DNA of 64,000 nucleotides, taken from positions 43,641-107,640 of IMG/VR virus record IMGVR_UViG_3300031760_000015; one strand, given 5' to 3'. The stretch is from a virus (Duplodnaviria > Heunggongvirae > Uroviricota > Caudoviricetes). Below the pieces are notes generated by a model. That model had not been told where the DNA came from. It made no database searches and was given only the letters and a program-made list of their open reading frames with translations. A program made the position numbers and the translations under genes. This document shows positions 6,743 to 52,010 of this stretch, piece after piece. The first letter of the stretch is position 1; each line of letters begins with the position of its first letter.

Positions 6743-8470
6743 ATGTCTGATTTTATCGTAAAAAATATTGATGAAGAACCCACTTTTGTTTTAGAGCAAG
6801 TTGTTGATCAAGCTTTAGTTAATGATGGTCATATCTTAGTTGACGCAGCTACTAAAAATACTTTCGTAGATAAAAATATTCATATTGATTTAGAAGTTCC
6901 TAATGCTTCTGCTCCAGTACTAGATGTAACTGATATTACTGGTTCTATTACTATGGGAACCGCAACGGACGGTGTTTATTCTCCTGTGGCAAATCTTTCC
7001 GGTACAGTAAATGTAGCTAGTGCTGGTTGGATGTCTGCTGGCAATAAAAATGTTTCCGAAAATGGAGTAAAGATTGGTAAGGTCAATCAATCTACTTTAA
7101 AGAATGGTAATACTGCCATTGCTAGTGGCGCAGAAATTACTCCTTCTGACGAAGATCAAACAATTAATATTTCTGAAGGTTATAATGCTGCTCGTACTGT
7201 TGTTGTTAAAGCCGCAAGTGAAAGTGACCCAGCAACTGTTGTTTCTGGTAACGCTACTGTTTCTACTTTAACTTATACCGCTGATAGTACAAATCACACA
7301 TTTGATATTAGTGGTACTGAAACTATTCCAGCTCCTAGCGTAACTACTCCTGGTTTTATTTCTACAACTAAAGGCACTAAGACTGCTGGTACTGCTACTG
7401 TAGCAGCTACTGTTGATGAAGTTACTGTTGGCGTAATTGCTAGTGAAACTACTAAAAAGGTAAAGCCTGTTATTGCTCGTACAGCTAAGCCTTCTGGCGA
7501 TGCGTGGGTTGATGCTGCTTCTGGCGCCGCAACTACTTCTAAACCAAGTGCTGGAGCTTATGTTCGTGTAGATGCTGCCGCTATTGCTGAAAGCGTAACC
7601 GCAACTGGTAAAGTAAGCCAAGCTGGTTATGGTACTACTACAGATTATCAAGCAGATACTGCTACCACTATTAATGTTGGTTCTAATGCTGCTGATAGTA
7701 CTTATATACCAGTTACTGCTGGTACTGTAACTGCTAATGGCGCTACTGTTAGCTCTGTTGCTTTAGCTTATAATTCCACAGGTGGAAACTTTGATGTTAC
7801 TGGTTCTGCTAATATTCCTGCTCCTACTGTTGGAACTGCTGGTTATGTTGGTGACGGTGTTGGAGCAGCTAATGGTTTATCTAATGGTGCTCAAGTTGCA
7901 GCTACTGTAGCTAAAGTTGGTATTGCTGCTTCTGTTACTGGTGGAAATGCTGTAACTCCTGTTATTTCTAAAGATGCTGCCACTAATGTTGATGCTAGTG
8001 CTGCAACTACTTCTCAACCTTCTGCTGGATTCTATGTAGCTGTTAATACCGCGGCCGATTCCTCTACTGTTAATGCTGCTGCTGCAGTAACTAGCGCAGG
8101 TTATGGTACTACTACTGATGGTCAATATACTACTACTCCTGCTAGTAAGACTGTTACTGTCAATGCAGCTGGAACAACTTATGTACCAATTACTGCTGCT
8201 TCTTTTGCTAATGCAGCAACTAATGGTCAAACTTATACAGATATTTCTAGTACAGCTCCAATTTTAGTATCTGATGATTATCTATATATTAATAAAGGCT
8301 ATACTAATAACGTAAAAATTAGTCTTGCTCAATTAGTACCAGATGATGCTACTATTACTGCTGCGACTGGTGCAGCTTATATGTTAAGCGGACAAAGTGC
8401 TTATGATAGTCAAGGTAAGTTAGTTGTGGGTAGTATTCCAACTTATAGCGGATCTTATACAATTGGTTAA
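6743..8470 (+). CDS. tail fibre-like protein (S/T/A/G-rich, internal repeats SxPSAGxYVxV...AGYGTTTD)
   Basis: composition, internal repeats; C-terminal AYDSQGKLVVGSIPTYSGSYT motif shared with next gene. Confidence 0.55.
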   Translation: MSDFIVKNIDEEPTFVLEQVVDQALVNDGHILVDAATKNTFVDKNIHIDLEVPNASAPVLDVTDITGSITMGTATDGVYSPVANLSGTVNVASAGWMSAGNKNVSENGVKIGKVNQSTLKNGNTAIASGAEITPSDEDQTINISEGYNAARTVVVKAASESDPATVVSGNATVSTLTYTADSTNHTFDISGTETIPAPSVTTPGFISTTKGTKTAGTATVAATVDEVTVGVIASETTKKVKPVIARTAKPSGDAWVDAASGAATTSKPSAGAYVRVDAAAIAESVTATGKVSQAGYGTTTDYQADTATTINVGSNAADSTYIPVTAGTVTANGATVSSVALAYNSTGGNFDVTGSANIPAPTVGTAGYVGDGVGAANGLSNGAQVAATVAKVGIAASVTGGNAVTPVISKDAATNVDASAATTSQPSAGFYVAVNTAADSSTVNAAAAVTSAGYGTTTDGQYTTTPASKTVTVNAAGTTYVPITAASFANAATNGQTYTDISSTAPILVSDDYLYINKGYTNNVKISLAQLVPDDATITAATGAAYMLSGQSAYDSQGKLVVGSIPTYSGSYTIG

Positions 8471-8539
8471 TTATGATATGTGGTTAAGTTTTTAAAACTT
8501 AACCACATTTTTAAAATTATTGTTAAGAAGGTGAGAATA

Positions 8540-10645
8540 ATGCCTCAAATAGATAATATTGCTAATGAGCCTTGGACTTCATCAATAGTTTTAGACGGAA
8601 GTAATAGTAAAACTATTCTTTATAATACAGCAAATAAATATATGGATAGAGACTTTAAAGTAGAAGTTACTGCAAATGAAGGTTCTGTTAGTCCATATTT
8701 TGATAATACTAATATTAGTACTTATTTTAATAGCGGTTCAGCTGGCTCAAATTCAATTAGTATTACTCCTAAAGCGACTTCTACTGCTGGTTTTGTTGGA
8801 GCATATGATACGAGTAATGCTCTTACTGGAACCGCAGTTTATTATACAATAAAATCTGGTACTTCTAAAGCAGGTAGTGCTGATGTTAATATAGATACTA
8901 CTGATGGAAGTGCTAATGGTGTTAATATTTCTGCTATTGTTGGAACAAAAGTAACTTCTGAACCAACTAGTGGATATTATTTAGCATTTAAAGGTGAAGG
9001 TAATTCTAAAGTTAATGCAGCTGGCTGGTTTGCTGCAGATACTTCTTTAACTAAAACTACAAGCGGGACTAAATATTTCCCTATTACTGCTGCGGCAATT
9101 ACAGCTTCTTCAAGTGATGCCACAGCTACAACTACTGTGGCCCCTGGAACGGTTACTATTGCAAAAGATACTTCAACAGTTTCAGGTAAAACTCGTTTAG
9201 ACTATACTCCAAGTACTGCAACTTCTGGTATTGGAACTTATTATATTGCAGTTAAAGCTAATGCTGCGGCAAATACTACTGGTACAACATCTTCAATTAG
9301 TGGTACAACTACTGCAAGTGTAAGTACCGCAGGTTATGCTCCAACTACACTATCAGGCTCTGGTAGTGTTAGTGGCACTGCTACAGCAAAAACTTCTTCA
9401 AAAGATAGTTCAGTTTATTATATTCCAGTGCCTTCTGCTGTTGCTACAATTACTGGTACAAATACTGTTACTCCATCAGCTTCATTAAGCCAATCTAATG
9501 TTACATTTAGTGATACTAATAATGGTATTTCAGTAACTGCAACTGGCGGTGGTACTGCTTCAGTTACAGCAAAAACAAATGCTACTACAGCTGGTTATAT
9601 TCCTGCCGGTGATAGCTTTAGTACAACTCTTTCTGCTTCTAGTAATACTACAACTGCTACTAAATATATTACAGGTATTACAGTACCAAAAGATAAAGGA
9701 TTTACTGTAACTACAACGGCGGATACAACATTAGATACTACTTCAGATTTAGATGTTACTAATGCTGCTTATCGTAGAGTTGATATTACTAATGCAGCAA
9801 ATGGTAGTGTTATAGTAAGCAATGCTGGTAATATTACTGCTACACAAAGTGCTAAAACTGGTGATATTGTTATTAATGCTTATGATACATCAAGTTCTAG
9901 TAGTTTAGCCGGTGAAAAGGCTATTGTTCAAAGTGGAACTTGGAAAACAACTGCTGCTTCCGGTGCAAGTACTTATTATGGTCGTGTAACAGTTGGCGCA
10001 GTAAGTGGAAGTATTGGTGGTTCTGCTTCAGGTGGTTCAGCAACTGCTACTATTACAAATACCAATAGTATTACAACTATTTCAGATATATCAGGAAAAA
10101 CAGCGGGTACTGATTATTGGCAGATTAAAGCTACTGCAACTGGTTCTGCTGGCTCTTATACTCCTAAATATACAGTCAATACCGCTGGTTGGATAGGTTC
10201 TACGGTTACTGGAACCGCACAAACTGTTTCTGTTTCCAGTGATAGTACGGGTAAATCATTATATATTCCAAAAGCTACGTTTAGTGTTTCTGGTAATAAA
10301 GTTTATTGTTCTGCGGCAGGCTATATCCCAGCTGGTAGTGCAAGTAGTCCTATTGGAACTGTTTCAACAGGTTCTATTTCTGCTGTTGCTAGCGATCCTG
10401 GAACTGGATATACTGAAAATACTTCTACTGTTATTGCTTCTGGTGGGTGGTTAAAATTAACTGCTGGTTATTATGGAGCAACTAAAATTAGTCTTGCTAC
10501 ATTAGTTCCTAATGCTGCTAATATCAGTAATGTTAGTGGTTATTCTGATGCAATGCTTGCTGGAACTACTGCTTATGATATTGATGGCGCTTTAATAACT
10601 GGTAATATTGCAACTTATGATGGTAGTTATACTGTTGTAACTTAA
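8540..10645 (+). CDS. tail fibre-like protein
   Basis: S/T/G-rich; C-terminal AYDIDGALITGNIATYDGSYT matches upstream gene; RBS GGTGAG. Confidence 0.55.
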   Translation: MPQIDNIANEPWTSSIVLDGSNSKTILYNTANKYMDRDFKVEVTANEGSVSPYFDNTNISTYFNSGSAGSNSISITPKATSTAGFVGAYDTSNALTGTAVYYTIKSGTSKAGSADVNIDTTDGSANGVNISAIVGTKVTSEPTSGYYLAFKGEGNSKVNAAGWFAADTSLTKTTSGTKYFPITAAAITASSSDATATTTVAPGTVTIAKDTSTVSGKTRLDYTPSTATSGIGTYYIAVKANAAANTTGTTSSISGTTTASVSTAGYAPTTLSGSGSVSGTATAKTSSKDSSVYYIPVPSAVATITGTNTVTPSASLSQSNVTFSDTNNGISVTATGGGTASVTAKTNATTAGYIPAGDSFSTTLSASSNTTTATKYITGITVPKDKGFTVTTTADTTLDTTSDLDVTNAAYRRVDITNAANGSVIVSNAGNITATQSAKTGDIVINAYDTSSSSSLAGEKAIVQSGTWKTTAASGASTYYGRVTVGAVSGSIGGSASGGSATATITNTNSITTISDISGKTAGTDYWQIKATATGSAGSYTPKYTVNTAGWIGSTVTGTAQTVSVSSDSTGKSLYIPKATFSVSGNKVYCSAAGYIPAGSASSPIGTVSTGSISAVASDPGTGYTENTSTVIASGGWLKLTAGYYGATKISLATLVPNAANISNVSGYSDAMLAGTTAYDIDGALITGNIATYDGSYTVVT

Positions 10646-25526: not shown

Positions 25527-25928
25527 ATGGGAAAATTAGTTGATTTAGCAATCAAACTTCGCCCATATATTGAAAAAGCTGCTGCAAATTTAAATGATAC
25601 AGATGCACTTGAAGCAATTCAATTATTTCCTAAATGGGAGCCTAATATTAAATATGAGAAAGACGATAGAGTAAGATATGAAAGTATTTTATATCGTTGC
25701 TTACAACCACATAATTCTCAAGAATCTTGGACTCCACTCGCGGCCGCAAGCCTATGGGCTAAAGTTTTAATTCCAGATGAAAATGTTATTCCAGATTGGG
25801 AACAACCTGATAGCACAAATCCATACCAAATTGGAGATAAAGTAAGATTTGAAAATAAAATTTATGAATCTGTTATAGCAAATAATATTTGGGCTCCAAA
25901 TGTTTATGGGTGGAAAGAGGTACTATAA
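25527..25928 (+). CDS. carbohydrate-binding protein with two CBM5/12-like domains
   Basis: YEKDDRVRYESILYRCLQPHNSQESWTPLAAASLWAKV matches CBM5/12 chitin-binding signature (Y..GD.V.Y.G..Y.C.Q.HTS..W.P...ALW). Confidence 0.55.
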   Translation: MGKLVDLAIKLRPYIEKAAANLNDTDALEAIQLFPKWEPNIKYEKDDRVRYESILYRCLQPHNSQESWTPLAAASLWAKVLIPDENVIPDWEQPDSTNPYQIGDKVRFENKIYESVIANNIWAPNVYGWKEVL

Positions 25929-27198: not shown

Positions 27199-27376
27199 TA
27201 GACCTGTAACAGCAATATAAAATTGGACTGTAAATCCCGAAAGATTGTGGGTTCGACTCCCACTCAGCCCCACCATTTATATGGGGCTGTGGCGCAACGG
27301 TTGACGCACGTGAAAAATTGGGTCTAGCATGTGCTGTAACGGGGAGAGGAGCACATTAATATCCCCTTTCCACCAT
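27199..27376 (+). ncRNA. E1: YACAGCAAU-motif element containing a circularly permuted tRNA-like core (T-arm + 3' acceptor CAGCCCC-A-CCA, 7-nt spacer, 5' acceptor GGGGCTG + D-arm) followed by two long hairpins
   Basis: motif TGTAACAGCAAT 27206-27216; T-arm 27247-27263; acceptor halves 27265-27271 and 27283-27289 perfectly complementary; CTGTAAC repeated at 27204 and 27344. Confidence 0.5.
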
Positions 27377-28004: not shown

Positions 28005-28114
28005 TAAGACAGTTACAGCAAATTCAATTAGATTATTAGTATAGTGGATAATACATTAAACTTCCAATTTAAAAATCGTCAGTTCGACTCTGACATAATC
28101 GAAAAAACTGTCTT
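28005..28114 (+). ncRNA. E2: long-range 9-bp stem (AAGACAGTT/AACTGTCTT) + ACAGCAAATT motif enclosing an intact tRNA-Gly(TCC)
   Basis: stem strands 28005-28013 and 28106-28114; motif 28014-28023. Confidence 0.55.
28030..28102 (+). tRNA. tRNA-Gly(TCC)
   Basis: D-arm GTAT..ATAC, anticodon arm TTAAA-CTTCCAA-TTTAA, T-arm GTCAGTTCGACTCTGAC; 1-72 A/G mismatch. Confidence 0.55.
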
Positions 28115-28536: not shown

Positions 28537-28655
28537 AGTCGCTCACAGCAATTGTTCTTATAGAACATATGGGTTCAAATCCCATAATACGCACAGCGTA
28601 TTTAGCCAAATGGTCAAGGCAGATGTCTAACAAACATCCTTCTATTAAAGCGACT
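28537..28655 (+). ncRNA. E3: stem-framed (AGTCGCT/AGCGACT) CACAGCAAT element enclosing a circularly permuted tRNA (T-arm + 3' acceptor AATACGC-ACA-GCGTATT 5' acceptor + D-arm + anticodon arm with loop CTAACAA)
   Basis: T-arm ATGGGTTCAAATCCCAT 28568-28584; acceptor halves 28585-28591 and 28595-28601 perfectly complementary; no T-arm follows the 5' half. Confidence 0.55.
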
Positions 28656-46623: not shown

Positions 46624-46688
46624 ATATGTAAGAACGACGATTACAGCAATTAATAAGTAAACATAGCTATTGGAGTTATTTCTACTGT
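46624..46688 (+). ncRNA. E4a: stem (ACGACG/CGTCGT) + ATTACAGCAATT motif hairpin element, no tRNA inside
   Basis: motif 46632-46643 directly 3' of the stem 5' strand. Confidence 0.45.
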
Positions 46689-46702
46689 TCGTCGTGCTGA
46701 TT

Positions 46703-46777
46703 GAAATTAAAGGCGGATACAGCAATTTTATATTTTAAGTAATAATCTGTTAAATTATCGCACTTAATAATAACCGC
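46703..46777 (+). ncRNA. E4b: stem (AGGCGG/CCGCCT) + ATACAGCAATT motif hairpin element
   Basis: motif 46709-46719. Confidence 0.45.
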
Positions 46778-46786
46778 CTAGAAATT

Positions 46787-47384: not shown

Positions 47385-47954
47385 GTGATTATTATGAAAA
47401 AATGGGAAAGGTTTTCTGATGAAGAGTTGCAAGAAATTGCTTATAGAAGTTCTTGCTTAGGAGACTACGCTAAAAATTTAGGCTATTCTATAAAAGGTAC
47501 TAGTGGTAATAGTGCTCGTTCTTCTGTAAAAGCAATGATTGAACTTAAACAAATAAATGTAATGCATTTTAAAGGTTATAAAGATAAATCTACACAATTT
47601 AATTATAAACATGTTAATGAAAATTATAATGTTAGTAATTTATTTATAGAAAATAGCTTCGCAGAAAGAAAACTTATTAGACGTTATTTATTAGCATATA
47701 ATTTAATTCCATATAAATGTGCTTTTTGTGGTAATGAAGGGGAATGGCGAGGAAAGCAGATTAGTTTAGAATTAGACCATATTAATGGCAAGCATAATGA
47801 TAATAGATTAGAAAATCTTCGTTGGCTTTGTCCAAATTGTCACGCTACTACTCCTACATACTGCGGTAAAAATATAACTTATCAATGTGAACAAGCCCTG
47901 TTAGCTCAGTCGGTAGAGCATTCGGCTGGTCAGATAGAAACAAGTCCTAGTTGA
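47385..47954 (+). CDS. HNH homing endonuclease
   Basis: CAFCG ... DHINGKHNDNRLENLRWLCPNCH; 3' end overlaps tRNA-Thr exon 1. Confidence 0.7.
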   Translation: MIIMKKWERFSDEELQEIAYRSSCLGDYAKNLGYSIKGTSGNSARSSVKAMIELKQINVMHFKGYKDKSTQFNYKHVNENYNVSNLFIENSFAERKLIRRYLLAYNLIPYKCAFCGNEGEWRGKQISLELDHINGKHNDNRLENLRWLCPNCHATTPTYCGKNITYQCEQALLAQSVEHSAGQIETSPS

Positions 47955-48020
47955 GTGCAAGACTCAAATCTGGCACCATTAACCGAAGTGTCGGCAGTTC
48001 AAGTCTGTCACAGGGCGCCA
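47895..48020 (+). tRNA. tRNA-Thr(GGT) interrupted by a 50-nt insert in the anticodon loop (insert 47931-47980, between nt 36 and 37)
   Basis: acceptor GCCCTGT/ACAGGGC, D-arm GCTCAGTCGGTAGAGC, anticodon stem TTCGG/CCGAA, T-arm GGCAGTTCAAGTCTGTC, CCA; insert folds into CAGAT/ATCTG and TTGAGT/ACTCAA helices. Confidence 0.55.
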
Positions 48021-48726: not shown

Positions 48727-48850
48727 TTAGACTCAGCCAGCATATTTTTTACTTACGCATTGAGGAGCGAGTAGCATTGGTTCGAATCCAATTCTTCCCA
48801 CTATATGGGAAGATAGTGTAATGGTAGCACGCTTAATAGTATGAGTCTAG
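48727..48850 (+). ncRNA. E7: stem-framed (TAGACTCA/TGAGTCTA) element with degenerate motif (GCCAGCATAT) enclosing a circularly permuted tRNA-like core (T-arm + 3' acceptor TCTTCCC ... 5' acceptor GGGAAGA + D-arm)
   Basis: T-arm ATTGGTTCGAATCCAAT; acceptor halves perfectly complementary; D-arm GTGTAATGGTAGCAC. Confidence 0.45.
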
Positions 48851-48934: not shown

Positions 48935-48963
48935 TTGACATCTTTTCAAAATTCTGTTATAAT
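48935..48963 (+). promoter_or_regulatory. sigma-A-type promoter TTGACA-N17-TATAAT
   Basis: -35 48935-48940, -10 48958-48963. Confidence 0.5.
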
Positions 48964-49221: not shown

Positions 49222-49313
49222 TAAGCCTTTACAGCAATTTTTAAATGGTTAAATTATTTTGTTTAAAGTACAGAGTAAGAGAAGGTTCGAGCCCTTCATA
49301 ATTAAAAGGCTTA
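49222..49313 (+). ncRNA. E5: 9-bp stem (TAAGCCTTT/AAAGGCTTA) + ACAGCAATTT motif element containing a T-arm-like hairpin (GAAGGTTCGAGCCCTTC)
   Basis: motif 49231-49240; T-arm-like 49281-49297. Confidence 0.45.
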
Positions 49314-49396: not shown

Positions 49397-49414
49397 CTTA
49401 AAAGGAGTAGTAAA

Positions 49415-49864
49415 ATGGGATTTTTTAATCGGTCTAAGAATACAAAAACAGAAAATTTAGAACTTAAACCGGTATCGTCTCCGTCAAAAAAATGTAATCA
49501 TAAATTTCAAGATTTTCCTTGGTATGTAGAAGGAACAGAAAATGATGATATTTATTCTAGACATTGGTATCATTTAACTATCAAAGAACCGTATGTTTGT
49601 ATTTATTGCGGAGAAAGACAAGATAAAATATTATGGGAAATAAAGCGTTATGGTCCACATAAAGAAGCAATACAAGGTTTAGATGATATTAATGAAAAAT
49701 TTAAAGACCATATTAGGCATCGTGCTGAAATTGAAGATATGATAAATGATATGCAATTAGTTGATCCACAATATTTACAATATTATCATATGCTTCAAGG
49801 AACTAAAGACCCATCTACTTCAAGACTATATGAAAAAGAAATAAAACCAAAATTAAAAGTTTAA
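49415..49864 (+). CDS. hypothetical protein (contains CIYCG Zn-ribbon-like motif)
   Basis: ORF track. Confidence 0.5.
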   Translation: MGFFNRSKNTKTENLELKPVSSPSKKCNHKFQDFPWYVEGTENDDIYSRHWYHLTIKEPYVCIYCGERQDKILWEIKRYGPHKEAIQGLDDINEKFKDHIRHRAEIEDMINDMQLVDPQYLQYYHMLQGTKDPSTSRLYEKEIKPKLKV

Positions 49865-49866
49865 TT

Positions 49867-49986
49867 TATGCGGTCACAGCAATTTTAGATATTAATCTAA
49901 GTGTCATCGGTTCGATTCCGATTATTCCAGCCATTTAATTTGGAGTGTAGCTCAATTGGTAGAGCATTAGACTTTATAACCGCATA
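49867..49986 (+). ncRNA. E6: 8-bp stem (TATGCGGT/ACCGCATA) + CACAGCAATT motif enclosing a circularly permuted tRNA (3' anticodon-stem strand TCTAA, variable loop, T-arm, 3' acceptor TATTCCA-G-CCA, spacer, 5' acceptor TGGAGTG, D-arm, 5' anticodon-stem strand TTAGA)
   Basis: T-arm ATCGGTTCGATTCCGAT 49906-49922; encoded CCA 49931-49933; D-arm GCTCAATTGGTAGAGC 49950-49965; no T-arm downstream of the 5' half. Confidence 0.6.
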
Positions 49987-50002
49987 GTACAAATATTTAT
50001 AG

Positions 50003-50061
50003 AGACTCTTTCAGCAAAAGTAAATTTATAAGTCCTTACATTATAAAAAGAATATGAGTCT
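50003..50061 (+). ncRNA. stem (AGACTC/GAGTCT) + degenerate motif TTTCAGCAAAAG hairpin element
   Basis: same arrangement as E2-E9, motif diverged. Confidence 0.3.
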
Positions 50062-50075
50062 TGTAATTAAACTTT

Positions 50076-50176
50076 AAGTCCGTTACAGCAATTTTATATA
50101 AAAATTTAGAATTAATTTAATATGTTGGTTTATTAAAAATTTTGAAAATTTATTGATACGGACTTGATTTTTTTAT
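50076..50176 (+). ncRNA. E8: 8-bp stem (AAGTCCGT/ACGGACTT) + TACAGCAATT motif element with AT-rich loop, followed by a T-run (terminator-like)
   Basis: motif 50084-50093; T-run 50168-50176. Confidence 0.45.
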
Positions 50177-50191
50177 TTGAAAGGTTAAAAT

Positions 50192-50551
50192 ATGAATGAC
50201 GCAAATTATGAATGGCTTTTTCTAATTCCTGAAGGTTGGGTACAGATTGCTCAACAAATGATTGAAGAATGTGAAGCTATCAATCCTTCTTATCAAATTG
50301 AAGATTTAAAAGAAAAATGGGGAGAATTGCGCGTTGTTAGTTATATTAAAGACTACAATGATACTGAATGGCTTCTTCCCGCCTCCAATGATAAAGAAAT
50401 AGAAGAAATAGAAAATAAATATATAGAACAAAGTCGTAAAACTTGTTGCATTTGCGGCAAATCTGCTACGAAAATATCTACTGGTTGGATTTGTCCTTAT
50501 TGTGATGATTGCGGAGATAAGGATGAGAGGTTTTATAAAAGGTTTAAATAA
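50192..50551 (+). CDS. Cys-rich (CCICG ... CPYCDDCG) hypothetical protein
   Basis: ORF track. Confidence 0.5.
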   Translation: MNDANYEWLFLIPEGWVQIAQQMIEECEAINPSYQIEDLKEKWGELRVVSYIKDYNDTEWLLPASNDKEIEEIENKYIEQSRKTCCICGKSATKISTGWICPYCDDCGDKDERFYKRFK

Positions 50552-50587
50552 GGCGGGTTAAGCCTAATGGTAAGGCAGGAGATTGCT
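50552..50587 (+). tRNA. tRNA-Ser(GCT) 5' exon
   Basis: GGCGGGT-TA-AGCCTAATGGTAAGGC-A-GGAGA-TTGCT; partner exon at 51251-51309. Confidence 0.5.
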
Positions 50588-50607
50588 TTTTTACTTAATT
50601 AAACTTA

Positions 50608-51225
50608 ATGGTAGAAACAAAGATTAAAGGGCTTACGACAGAATTATTATGTCAGGCATATCTTACTTCTTTAGGATATAATATTTCTATTCCTATTGGC
50701 GAAGATTGTAGATATGATATGATTCTGGATTTAAATGGAAAACTTTTGCGTATACAAGTTAAAACTTGTCAAGAAGAAGAAAATAGAATATCTTTTCGTA
50801 CTTGTAGTATTACAACATCCGGAAAAGAAAATATTATTCATAAATATACTAAAGACCAAATTGATTTAATAGCTACTTATTATAATGACCAATGTTATTT
50901 AATTCCAATTGAAGAATGTGAAGGAATGAAAGGTAGAAGTTTAGTTTTTTCACCAGAAAAAACAAATGCTATTAAACCTTTATATATTAAAGATTATACA
51001 GCAGAAATCATTTTAAATAAAATCCTTAATAATGAACAAATTAAAAAGGAGGATGATTTTATTGTGTATCAATATGATTTAAATAATAACTTACTTAATC
51101 AATTTTCTTCATACGCAGAAGCAGGAACTTCCATTAACAAACCTTCTAGTCATATAAGTCAATGTGCTAGAGGATTAAGAAAAACCGCATATGGTTTTAT
51201 TTGGTCATTAACATTAAAGGATTAA
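50608..51225 (+). CDS. PD-(D/E)XK-like homing endonuclease with NUMOD-like C-terminus, inside the tRNA-Ser intervening sequence
   Basis: YDMILD ... RIQVKT; C-terminal ...CARGLRKTAYGFIWS; paralog of 34443 gene. Confidence 0.45.
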   Translation: MVETKIKGLTTELLCQAYLTSLGYNISIPIGEDCRYDMILDLNGKLLRIQVKTCQEEENRISFRTCSITTSGKENIIHKYTKDQIDLIATYYNDQCYLIPIEECEGMKGRSLVFSPEKTNAIKPLYIKDYTAEIILNKILNNEQIKKEDDFIVYQYDLNNNLLNQFSSYAEAGTSINKPSSHISQCARGLRKTAYGFIWSLTLKD

Positions 51226-51930: not shown

Positions 51931-52010
51931 TTTAGACATTCACAGCAATAATAAGCAATGCCATTATTTAAATTTAAATCAAAAGATTATTGCAACTTTT
52001 GTAGTGTCTA
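51931..52010 (+). ncRNA. E9: stem (TAGACA/TGTCTA) + TTCACAGCAATAAT motif element with AT-rich loop
   Basis: motif 51939-51952. Confidence 0.45.

Follow-up and report, generated by a model that had tools for sequence, protein, structure and literature searches.

The closest described relatives of the RNA element reported here are the bacterial Y RNAs of the YrlA type (RF02553; Chen et al. 2014, PMC4201824). Their 5′ and 3′ ends form a terminal stem whose 5′ strand bears a short conserved motif; this protein-binding stem stands in place of an open acceptor end, and the body shows the order V region, T arm, capped acceptor-like stem-loop and D arm. A genome holds several paralogues, not all of which have the tRNA module (cf. 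YrlB), and the genes adjoin that of a Ro60-fold protein, on the same strand and in an RNA-repair context. YrlA-like RNAs located beside Ro60 have been reported in 22 phages (PMC4201824). In phage phiLo, Ro60 binds adjacent Y-like RNAs (Yrl1 and Yrl2), and recruitment of PNPase has been demonstrated (PMC12135203). The inspection of 64,000 nt of DNA from a virus of the Caudoviricetes (IMG/VR record IMGVR_UViG_3300031760_000015, positions 43,641 to 107,640; the whole stretch is referred to as the window) identified an element with a similar architecture, named E6, within a tRNA island that also holds ten further elements of its kind. The window encodes a Ro60-like protein of the DUF2828 family on the same strand. 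With a probability of roughly two in three, E6 is the tRNA-mimic form of a Y-RNA-like partner of this protein, in a phage module for RNA/tRNA repair or surveillance.

E6 (positions 49867-49986, plus strand, 120 nt) was found on sequence inspection to contain an 8-bp terminal helix (P1), a T arm, a capped acceptor hairpin and a D arm, in permuted order (Table 1). The sequence-only reading had listed these parts, and the pairings it claimed are all present (acceptor stem, 7 bp including two G-U pairs; T arm, 5 bp; D arm, 4 bp; P1, 8 bp). Its part list holds for the parts it named, but it skipped 11 nt (TTAGATATTAA), so TCTAA has two candidate partners: with a TTAGA upstream of it, a local hairpin with 6 nt in its loop is formed; the other candidate is the TTAGA beyond the D arm. 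The minimum free energy (MFE) of E6 was −31.8 kcal/mol (z = −3.4; none of 200 shuffled sequences was equally stable), and the MFE structure included P1, the anticodon-like hairpin, the T arm, the capped acceptor stem and the D arm. A run of ARAGORN, one of the checks that had been proposed, returned no tRNA call at 49867-49986, and neither did the Rfam tRNA model RF00005. The best Rfam match was YrlA, at 30.6 bits (E 1e-4 in a search of 551 nt), and covered the tRNA-like module only.

Near-identical orthologues of E6 were present in three related viral contigs in which the flanking protein was merely 77–83% identical; a blastn search with positions 49400-50700 against the cultured phages of INPHARED gave no match. 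The loop of the anticodon-like hairpin had 5 nt (TTTAA) in the orthologues as against 6 nt in E6, and the linker CTTTATA became ATTTATA or ATTATAA. Because the orthologues have the 5-nt loop TTTAA, this hairpin does not hold a decoding loop. With loops of 6 and 5 nt, and with a linker that varies in this way, the idea that E6 might give a UAA-reading suppressor finds no support.

Dozens of viral contigs showed the design of E6. When IMG/VR was scanned for a pattern (ACAGCAA, 12–42 nt, T-loop), at least 120 stretches were obtained, and 53 clean members were parsed from 97 P1-bearing pattern matches in the listed viral loci and the window. All 53 showed a fixed part order: P1, yACAGCAA, variable region, T arm, acceptor hairpin, D arm, A-rich linker and P1. 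A full-length MAFFT alignment misplaced the 3′ strand of P1, and a trimmed core alignment of 55 members was therefore used for covariation. In it, 95.8% of the cells were paired, versus 60% in shuffled alignments and 31–43% with slid partners, and 23 of the 24 pairs had changed on both sides. All eight P1 pairs and all seven acceptor pairs covaried (96% of acceptor cells paired), while the T helix was paired in 100% of cells. As P1 had served as a selection criterion in this alignment, it was tested apart on 60 non-redundant elements picked by their T, acceptor and D helices only: a P1 of at least 7 bp was present in 51 of them, versus 7 of 60 reversed and 2 of 60 shuffled controls. A covariance model built from the core alignment (R1) matched E6 at 40.9 bits (E 4e-8) and detected an eleventh element in the window; its matches were mostly local, with the variable regions trimmed, and included tRNA-tRNA junctions, so no census was drawn from it. 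A detector of CAGCAA plus a downstream complement gave 7-bp false positives in coding DNA and was for this reason used with controls only. For 35 curated elements (from the window and nine cultured phages), CAGCAA was the defining search string and hence not an independent sign of conservation; the independent conservation is that of the A preceding it (32/35). A G followed P1 in 29 of the 35.

The arrangement of parts varied within the family. Many relatives had canonical 7-nt anticodon loops (GTA, GAT, GAA, TGT, TAC, CTA) and NCCA; E6 lacks such a loop. One permuted member (contig L015, 885-1011) had the anticodon loop CTCTAAA (CTA, amber-reading) and ACCA in its acceptor loop. Many acceptor loops in the family were 3–6 nt long and lacked CCA. 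Adjoining several DUF2828 genes, Rfam called 113–123-nt ‘tRNAs’ (40–53 bits) whose anticodon stem is interrupted in its 5′ strand, at about position 29/30, by an insert made of an A-rich linker, a closed P1 hairpin, yACAGCAA and a spacer. This non-permuted form is an exact circular permutation of the E6 type: in E6, P1 is open and the acceptor stem capped, and in the non-permuted form the reverse applies. In a third arrangement (element 28537 and relatives), P1 enters at the variable region. The common denominator of the family is P1+ACAGCAA, with an optional tRNA-like body; of the elements beside DUF2828 in cultured phages, a minority have one. The family was not found described in Rfam 15 or in the searchable full-text literature; these small phage RNAs apparently form a large, undescribed family. 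The sequence-only reading had maintained that neither YrlA-type RNAs nor permuted tRNA genes are described in a phage tRNA island; this overlooked the YrlA-like RNAs of the 22 phages mentioned above (PMC4201824), and agrees, within the sources just named, with the lack of any match for the ACAGCAA/DUF2828 variant.

Within the window, ACAGCAA recurred in the non-coding DNA of the tRNA island, each time after a strand of 6–9 nt with a perfect complement 50–130 nt downstream. The 11 P1+yACAGCAA elements, one of them with a variant motif, had P1 sequences that differed from one another, the two strands of each P1 being complementary. Four have permuted tRNA-like bodies (27199, 28537, 48729 and E6), one wraps a tRNA-Gly (28005), one has a T arm only (49222) and five are small elements without tRNA parts. 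Judging from element 28005, the P1+ACAGCAA module can wrap an intact tRNA too.

The RNA pattern proved to be linked to DUF2828. A DUF2828 homologue (23–50% identity) was present in 32 of 120 listed viral loci that had been fetched by the RNA pattern alone. Among the matches listed in these 32 loci, all 44 lay on the same strand as the DUF2828 gene; the median distance to it was 426 nt, with 40 matches within 1.5 kb and 18 downstream of the gene. In bacterial and archaeal genomes the same pattern gave mostly chance matches, with DUF2828 in 3 of 120 loci. Nine of ten cultured phages checked, from six bacterial groups, had P1+CAGCAA beside the DUF2828 gene: Listeria phage A511, Felix O1/FO1a, mycobacteriophage Crossroads (cluster L), Staphylococcus phage 6ec, Bacillus phage FADO, Campylobacter phage CP30A, Synechococcus phage BUCT-ZZ01, Sinorhizobium phage phiM7 and Enterococcus phage VRE9_2; the tenth, Vibrio phage VH7D, was ambiguous. 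Permuted tRNA-like members of the E6 type were present in Felix O1, Crossroads, FADO and phiM7, and most elements beside DUF2828 in cultured phages had no tRNA parts at all. In VRE9_2 (L281), a coding sequence for a ‘hypothetical protein’ (2856-2972) is annotated across the P1+ACAGCAA element at 2887-2950. The tRNA cluster of phage T5 (within a 50-kb stretch without DUF2828) contained no P1+ACAGCAA element between its tRNAs. Its 30.2–34.0 kb region (L282) is annotated with ‘tRNA-like stable RNAs with unknown functions’ (RNA1, RNA2, RNA3, RNAI, RNAIII and others); because these lack the P1+ACAGCAA module, the T5 island holds a different set of orphan RNAs.

The AlphaFold model of the DUF2828 protein (predicted local distance difference test score, pLDDT, 78.9) points to the Ro60 fold. 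Its top 11 Foldseek matches in the PDB were all Ro60/Rsr/TROVE structures (E 9e-10 to 3e-6), including human Ro60 and the Ro60 of Thermus phage phiLo, and extended over the full length (~565 columns) with a template-modelling (TM) score of ~0.5. Single-sequence and profile searches of PDB sequences with the same protein found no Ro60. Homologues of DUF2828 occurred in at least 692 cultured phage records. In the window, the gene is surrounded by genes for SPFH, DUF5662, PTH2, a cyclic-phosphate-processing receiver domain and an RNA ligase. In 51 loci that are more distant, the genes met repeatedly beside DUF2828 encode a calcineurin-like phosphoesterase (Metallophos), an AAA_33-type kinase, RlaP, DUF5662 and RNA ligase; those of Listeria phage A511 included RtcB. 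By their gene content, these surroundings are an RNA-repair neighbourhood, comparable to rsr-yrlBA-rtcBA in Salmonella. In a related viral contig (L075), a permuted two-piece transfer-messenger RNA (tmRNA) was detected at 7967-8218 (cyano_tmRNA, 116 bits; tmRNA_permuted, 81 bits), just upstream of the DUF2828 gene at 8446-9885.

E6 and its relatives share with YrlA the terminal stem with a motif on its 5′ strand, the order of the parts and the presence of several paralogues; across the family, the genes also lie beside, and on the strand of, a gene for a protein of predicted Ro60 fold in an RNA-repair context. E6 aligns to positions 23–88 of the YrlA model. Its 7-bp acceptor stem resembles that of Mycobacterium smegmatis YrlA, which is cut by RNase P and receives CCA. 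The differences lie in the motif (of the yACAGCAA type in E6 and all 35 curated relatives, GNCGAAN0-1G in YrlA; PMC4201824), in the partner (DUF2828/DUF7788 and not Pfam TROVE), in the CCA being encoded in E6, in the anticodon-arm-like hairpin added by many family members, in the existence of a non-permuted form, in which a tRNA normal in other respects contains P1 as a closed hairpin, and in the up to 11 copies spread over the tRNA island. E6 would work like YrlA yet is not classed here as a YrlA member, because it fails on both the 5′ motif and the Rfam score, and the Pfam family of the partner also differs. With the phiLo system (PMC12135203), the present one has in common a phage Ro60-fold protein, tandem small RNAs adjoining it and a 5′-3′ stem with a conserved loop motif. 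The Yrl RNAs of phiLo, in contrast, carry CGAA and are not described as tRNA mimics, and their binding has been shown, whereas that of E6 is presumed.

From the structure of E6, its family, the gene linkage and the protein fold, we infer binding, processing and a role as follows. E6 would be a stable non-coding RNA of the Y-RNA type, probably transcribed together with neighbouring tRNAs and small elements, with its 5′ and 3′ ends paired as P1. This helix and the single-stranded ACAGCAA just inside it would form a putative docking site for the Ro60-like protein, ACAGCAA being a candidate protein-binding site by analogy with the GNCGAA/CGAA of Y RNAs. The remainder would fold as a tRNA look-alike with a T arm, a D arm, a 7-bp acceptor stem and a loop with GCCA; RNase P could cut ahead of TGGAGTG and expose the encoded CCA, as for M. 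smegmatis YrlA. The ribonucleoprotein (RNP) would most likely serve a phage RNA/tRNA repair or quality-control module, as its neighbours (kinase/phosphoesterase, ligase, RlaP, PTH2) suggest; its tRNA-shaped body would tether enzymes that handle tRNA, or would gate or imitate tRNA that has been damaged. A stem of the 5′ and 3′ ends adjoining a conserved sequence, plus a variable module, is a feature of the Y RNA class that is present here. P1 with an optional body would follow the modular logic of Y RNAs, namely a protein-binding stem joined to a variable effector module. The suggestion in the sequence-only reading of a YrlA-type tRNA mimic on a closing stem of the protein-binding type is thus strengthened by the Ro60-fold protein in the window, which E6 would presumably bind, and by an RNA family linked to its gene in many phages.

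Several observations weigh against this reading. The ACAGCAA motif differs from GNCGAAN0-1G/CGAA, and the YrlA score of 30.6 compares with a cut-off of 69. The YrlA model gave no match in the loci of Crossroads, FADO and 6ec (E≤1) or in those of A511 and Felix O1 (E≤0.1); Rfam 15, YrlA included, reported nothing on the cultured-phage elements in the loci tested. The kinship of DUF2828 with Ro60 rests on a predicted structure, at a TM score of ~0.5. E6 lies 9.8 kb from the Ro60-like gene (same strand), a distance that for YrlA is typically within 4 kb, and the window has no element immediately beside that gene. Further, a pure scaffold model predicts neither the canonical 7-nt anticodon loops with varied anticodons in many relatives nor the non-permuted versions, which resemble ordinary tRNAs with an intron-like insert at ~29/30. 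The retained anticodon loops and the intron-like placement of the module are the main unexplained point; there is a low probability that some members are pre-tRNAs needing removal of the module.

Part of what the proposed partnership leaves unexplained would be expected if E6 and its relatives were true permuted, or intron-like interrupted, tRNA genes. Permuted tRNA genes reportedly occur in Cyanidioschyzon merolae, other algae and Thermofilum pendens, and are said to have been described by Soma et al. in 2007 and by Chan et al. in 2011. Those of the C. merolae type contain a bulge-helix-bulge (BHB) that is cut by a splicing endonuclease, and decoding tRNAs result. E6 resembles them in having the 3′ half before the 5′ half, a short spacer between the acceptor strands and a leader that pairs with the trailer. 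In a phage analogue of this pathway, P1/ACAGCAA would be excised, the ends joined by phage healing and sealing enzymes, and the acceptor loop opened by RNase P and 3′ trimming to give a working tRNA. The part order and encoded GCCA of E6, the relatives with canonical anticodon loops and NCCA, the non-permuted versions that score 40–53 bits as tRNAs with the insert within the anticodon-stem 5′ strand, and the RNA ligase and cyclic-phosphate domain adjoining the Ro60-like gene all fit this possibility; moreover, the window has no ordinary tRNA-Tyr or tRNA-Val, and elements 27199 (GTA) and 28537 (AAC) could supply both. The P1 of E6, however, is an uninterrupted 8-bp helix between a 10-nt 5′ loop and a 7-nt 3′ loop, without 3-nt bulges 4 bp apart, and no splicing endonuclease was identified. 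The hairpin loop, 6 nt long in E6, has 5 nt in the orthologues, the alternative loop varies between TTA and TAT, many acceptor loops in the family are 3–6 nt long and lack CCA, most elements beside DUF2828 in cultured phages are without tRNA parts, and the core of the family is not a tRNA. The comparison with C. merolae drawn in the sequence-only reading thus fails for E6 as a permuted pre-tRNA, because its loop is degenerate, there is no BHB and the putative anticodon is not conserved; we consider such a pathway very unlikely for the family.

Rather unlikely, in our judgement, is that P1+ACAGCAA is a cis-acting processing, stability or autoregulatory signal of tRNA-island or DUF2828 transcripts (e.g. 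a nuclease entry or stop site, or a protein-bound leader controlling its own mRNA) and not a trans-acting RNP RNA, its tRNA-like body being incidental. Elements often begin 3–15 nt after a tRNA, one wraps a normal tRNA, those of A511, CP30A, BUCT-ZZ01 and VRE9_2 lie between a promoter region and the DUF2828 start codon, and element 50076 is followed by a T run, all of which would suit such a signal. The 18 of 44 listed matches that are downstream of the gene would not, and nor would the copies about 10 kb or more away from it, E6 included; covarying T, D and acceptor helices are needless for a cleavage signal, and the parallel with Ro60/Y RNA loci is close. The tRNA-shaped body, the varied anticodon loops among relatives and an RNA-repair neighbourhood that implies conflict over tRNA cleavage could also indicate a free RNA that, as a decoy or sponge, occupies host anticodon nucleases or other defences aimed at tRNAs, independently of the Ro60-like protein. 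This is very unlikely, since it leaves unexplained the invariant ACAGCAA+P1, the tRNA-less majority and the strict same-strand adjacency to DUF2828, and since E6 itself lacks a canonical anticodon loop. The presence of TTAGA twice, as a duplication junction would leave it, and of five homing-endonuclease genes in or beside the island had raised the prospect of a non-functional relic of tandem tRNA duplication or of homing-endonuclease-driven rearrangement. To this we give almost no weight: E6 is kept in related contigs despite the divergence of the flanking protein, the same architecture and covariation are found in phages of unrelated hosts, and acceptor strands from two independent tRNAs would not pair, so that conservation appears largely to have refuted it already.

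Other candidates were set aside. In a junction of two adjacent tRNAs, the acceptor strands would not be expected to behave as they do here, where they pair with each other and covary. A two-piece (permuted) tmRNA was discarded for E6, which has no tag, no ARAGORN tmRNA call, a 16-bit partial cyano_tmRNA match (T arm/acceptor) and a length of 120 nt only. No core motifs of a self-cleaving ribozyme or BHB intron matched (by inspection only), and a retron-type non-coding RNA was considered and dropped, no search for a reverse transcriptase having been made.

A further resemblance concerns the Class I RNAs of dictyostelids, which are ~60 nt long and have a covarying 6-bp terminal stem, an unstructured CCUUACAGCAA beside its 5′ strand and a CUGU 3′ end (PMC7919456). 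Rnp1A/CIBP, a protein with an RNA-recognition motif, is the one partner shown to bind a Class I RNA directly, and three further proteins are associated (PMC7919456). The Class I family (RF01414; PMC7919456) has, like the phage elements, a covarying stem of 6–8 bp, the motif (CC)UUACAGCAA right after the 5′ strand with a near-invariant C..CAA, a size of ~60 nt, G/U after the 3′ strand, a variable A/U-rich interior and clustered multi-copy genes; E6 likewise has the stem and (C)ACAGCAA. Unlike the phage elements, Class I RNAs are eukaryotic, have an upstream element of the RNA polymerase II/III type and have no tRNA-like members known. The Class I model was the best Rfam match for three small elements, one in the window (50003-50063, 17.7 bits) and two in Staphylococcus phage 6ec (L275, 4523-4660, 22.4 bits each), against a cut-off of 41.5; the matches spanned the full model length, with the terminal stem, UUACAGCAA and a 3′ UG shared. 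P1+ACAGCAA might then represent a second, unrecognised RNP system of a Ro60 paralogue (DUF2828), with an RNA homologous to Class I RNAs, these being the Y-like RNAs of a eukaryotic DUF2828; we regard this as doubtful.

The features of the window are collected in Table 1. The promoter at 48935-48963 probably drives element 49222, a tRNA-Thr, a 149-aa open reading frame (ORF), E6 and the two elements after E6. Near-identical sigma-70-type promoters (TTGACT/TTGACA, 17 nt, TATAAT) were noted at 38378, 40158, 42400 and 48935, where they precede the Ro60-like gene, the cREC gene, a long non-coding stretch and the E6 transcription unit, respectively. That non-coding stretch (1.5 kb, 42400-43970, GC-richer, downstream of the RNA ligase gene) contains a drum RNA (RF02958, 70.8 bits) at 43192-43303; the segment 42800-43190 had no Rfam match and includes a weak P1-like element with GAGCAGCAA at 43098-43167. 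A 123-nt tRNA detected by Rfam at 47895-48017 (51.8 bits) was missed by ARAGORN; it has an insert of ~50 nt in its anticodon loop (stem TTCGG/CCGAA), lacks CAGCAA and overlaps the 3′ end of the HNH endonuclease ORF at 47385-47954. The five genes of homing-endonuclease type (two GIY-YIG, one HNH and two PD-(D/E)XK_5) are at 25889, 34443, 43971, 47385 and 50608, within or beside the tRNA island.

Table 1. Features of the window (positions are those of the 64,000-nt stretch)
Feature	Position	Strand	Basis or remark
Permuted tRNA-like element	27199-27326	+	Anticodon-like loop CTGTAAA (GTA); ACCA in acceptor loop
P1+ACAGCAA around normal-order tRNA-Gly(TCC)	28005-28114	+	Pairs tRNA leader with trailer; ARAGORN and P1 pairing
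Permuted tRNA-like element	28537-28655	+	Full anticodon arm follows D arm; P1 enters at variable region
PTH2 peptidyl-tRNA hydrolase gene	37605-38108	+	
Ro60-like protein gene, 542 aa	38483-40111	+	Pfam DUF2828 and DUF7788/vWA; phrog_850 ‘RNA-binding protein’
cREC_REC cyclic-phosphate-processing receiver domain protein gene	40356-40721	+	Kept beside DUF2828 in related loci
RNA ligase gene (PF09414)	41746-42396	+	
Small element without tRNA parts	46634-46695	+	
Small element without tRNA parts	46711-46779	+	
Permuted tRNA-like element, variant motif CCAGCAT	48729-48849	+	Found later by covariance model R1
Consensus sigma-70 promoter TTGACA-17-TATAAT	48935-48963	+	Consensus match only
Element with T arm only	49222-49313	+	ARAGORN ‘tRNA-Phe aaa’
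E6: P1 5′ strand TATGCGGT	49867-49874	+	Pairs with 49979-49986
E6: CA after P1 5′ strand	49875-49876	+	Sequence
E6: CAGCAA	49877-49882	+	Sequence; ACAGCAA motif is 49876-49882
E6: TT	49883-49884	+	Sequence
E6: anticodon-arm-like hairpin TTAGA-TATTAA-TCTAA	49885-49900	+	6-nt loop; sequence and MFE fold
E6: variable-loop-like GTGTC	49901-49905	+	Sequence
E6: T arm ATCGG-TTCGATT-CCGAT	49906-49922	+	5 bp; sequence and YrlA model match
E6: 3′ acceptor strand TATTCCA	49923-49929	+	Part of capped acceptor hairpin 49923-49947
E6: G, then CCA	49930; 49931-49933	+	Encoded GCCA inside acceptor loop
E6: spacer TTTAATT, 7 nt	49934-49940	+	Joins acceptor strands
E6: 5′ acceptor strand TGGAGTG	49941-49947	+	7-bp acceptor stem with TATTCCA, two G-U included
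E6: TA	49948-49949	+	Sequence
E6: D arm GCTC-AATTGGTA-GAGC	49950-49965	+	4 bp; sequence, YrlA match, family alignment
E6: A (A26)	49966	+	Sequence
E6: TTAGA, second copy	49967-49971	+	Sequence
E6: A/T-rich linker CTTTATA	49972-49978	+	Sequence; varies among orthologues
E6: P1 3′ strand ACCGCATA, then G	49979-49986	+	Pairs with 49867-49874
Small element TTTCAGCAA	50003-50061	+	
A/T-rich element	50076-50165	+	T run right after
Small element	51933-52010	+	Immediately 3′ of tRNA-Gln

The phages with DUF2828 include model and applied ones (Felix O1, Listeria phages A511 and P100, Staphylococcus, Enterococcus and Campylobacter phages, and cluster-L mycobacteriophages), in which the putative RNA partners of this protein are apparently unannotated, or sometimes mis-called as tRNAs or small ORFs. 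Their recognition would improve the annotation of tRNA islands. A conserved RNA module would also provide a handle on the role of Ro60-like proteins in phage RNA-repair cassettes, and on how tRNAs are protected or policed during infection. Within the family, one and the same RNA architecture is circularly permuted in nature, the open end being the acceptor stem in some members and P1 in others; such permutation is rare among non-coding RNAs. Finally, if the resemblance to Class I RNAs should reflect common descent, phages of six bacterial groups would share with a eukaryotic lineage an RNA class of which E6 is the tRNA-mimic form, and RNAs that have been an orphan class for 20 years would acquire a protein partner open to testing.

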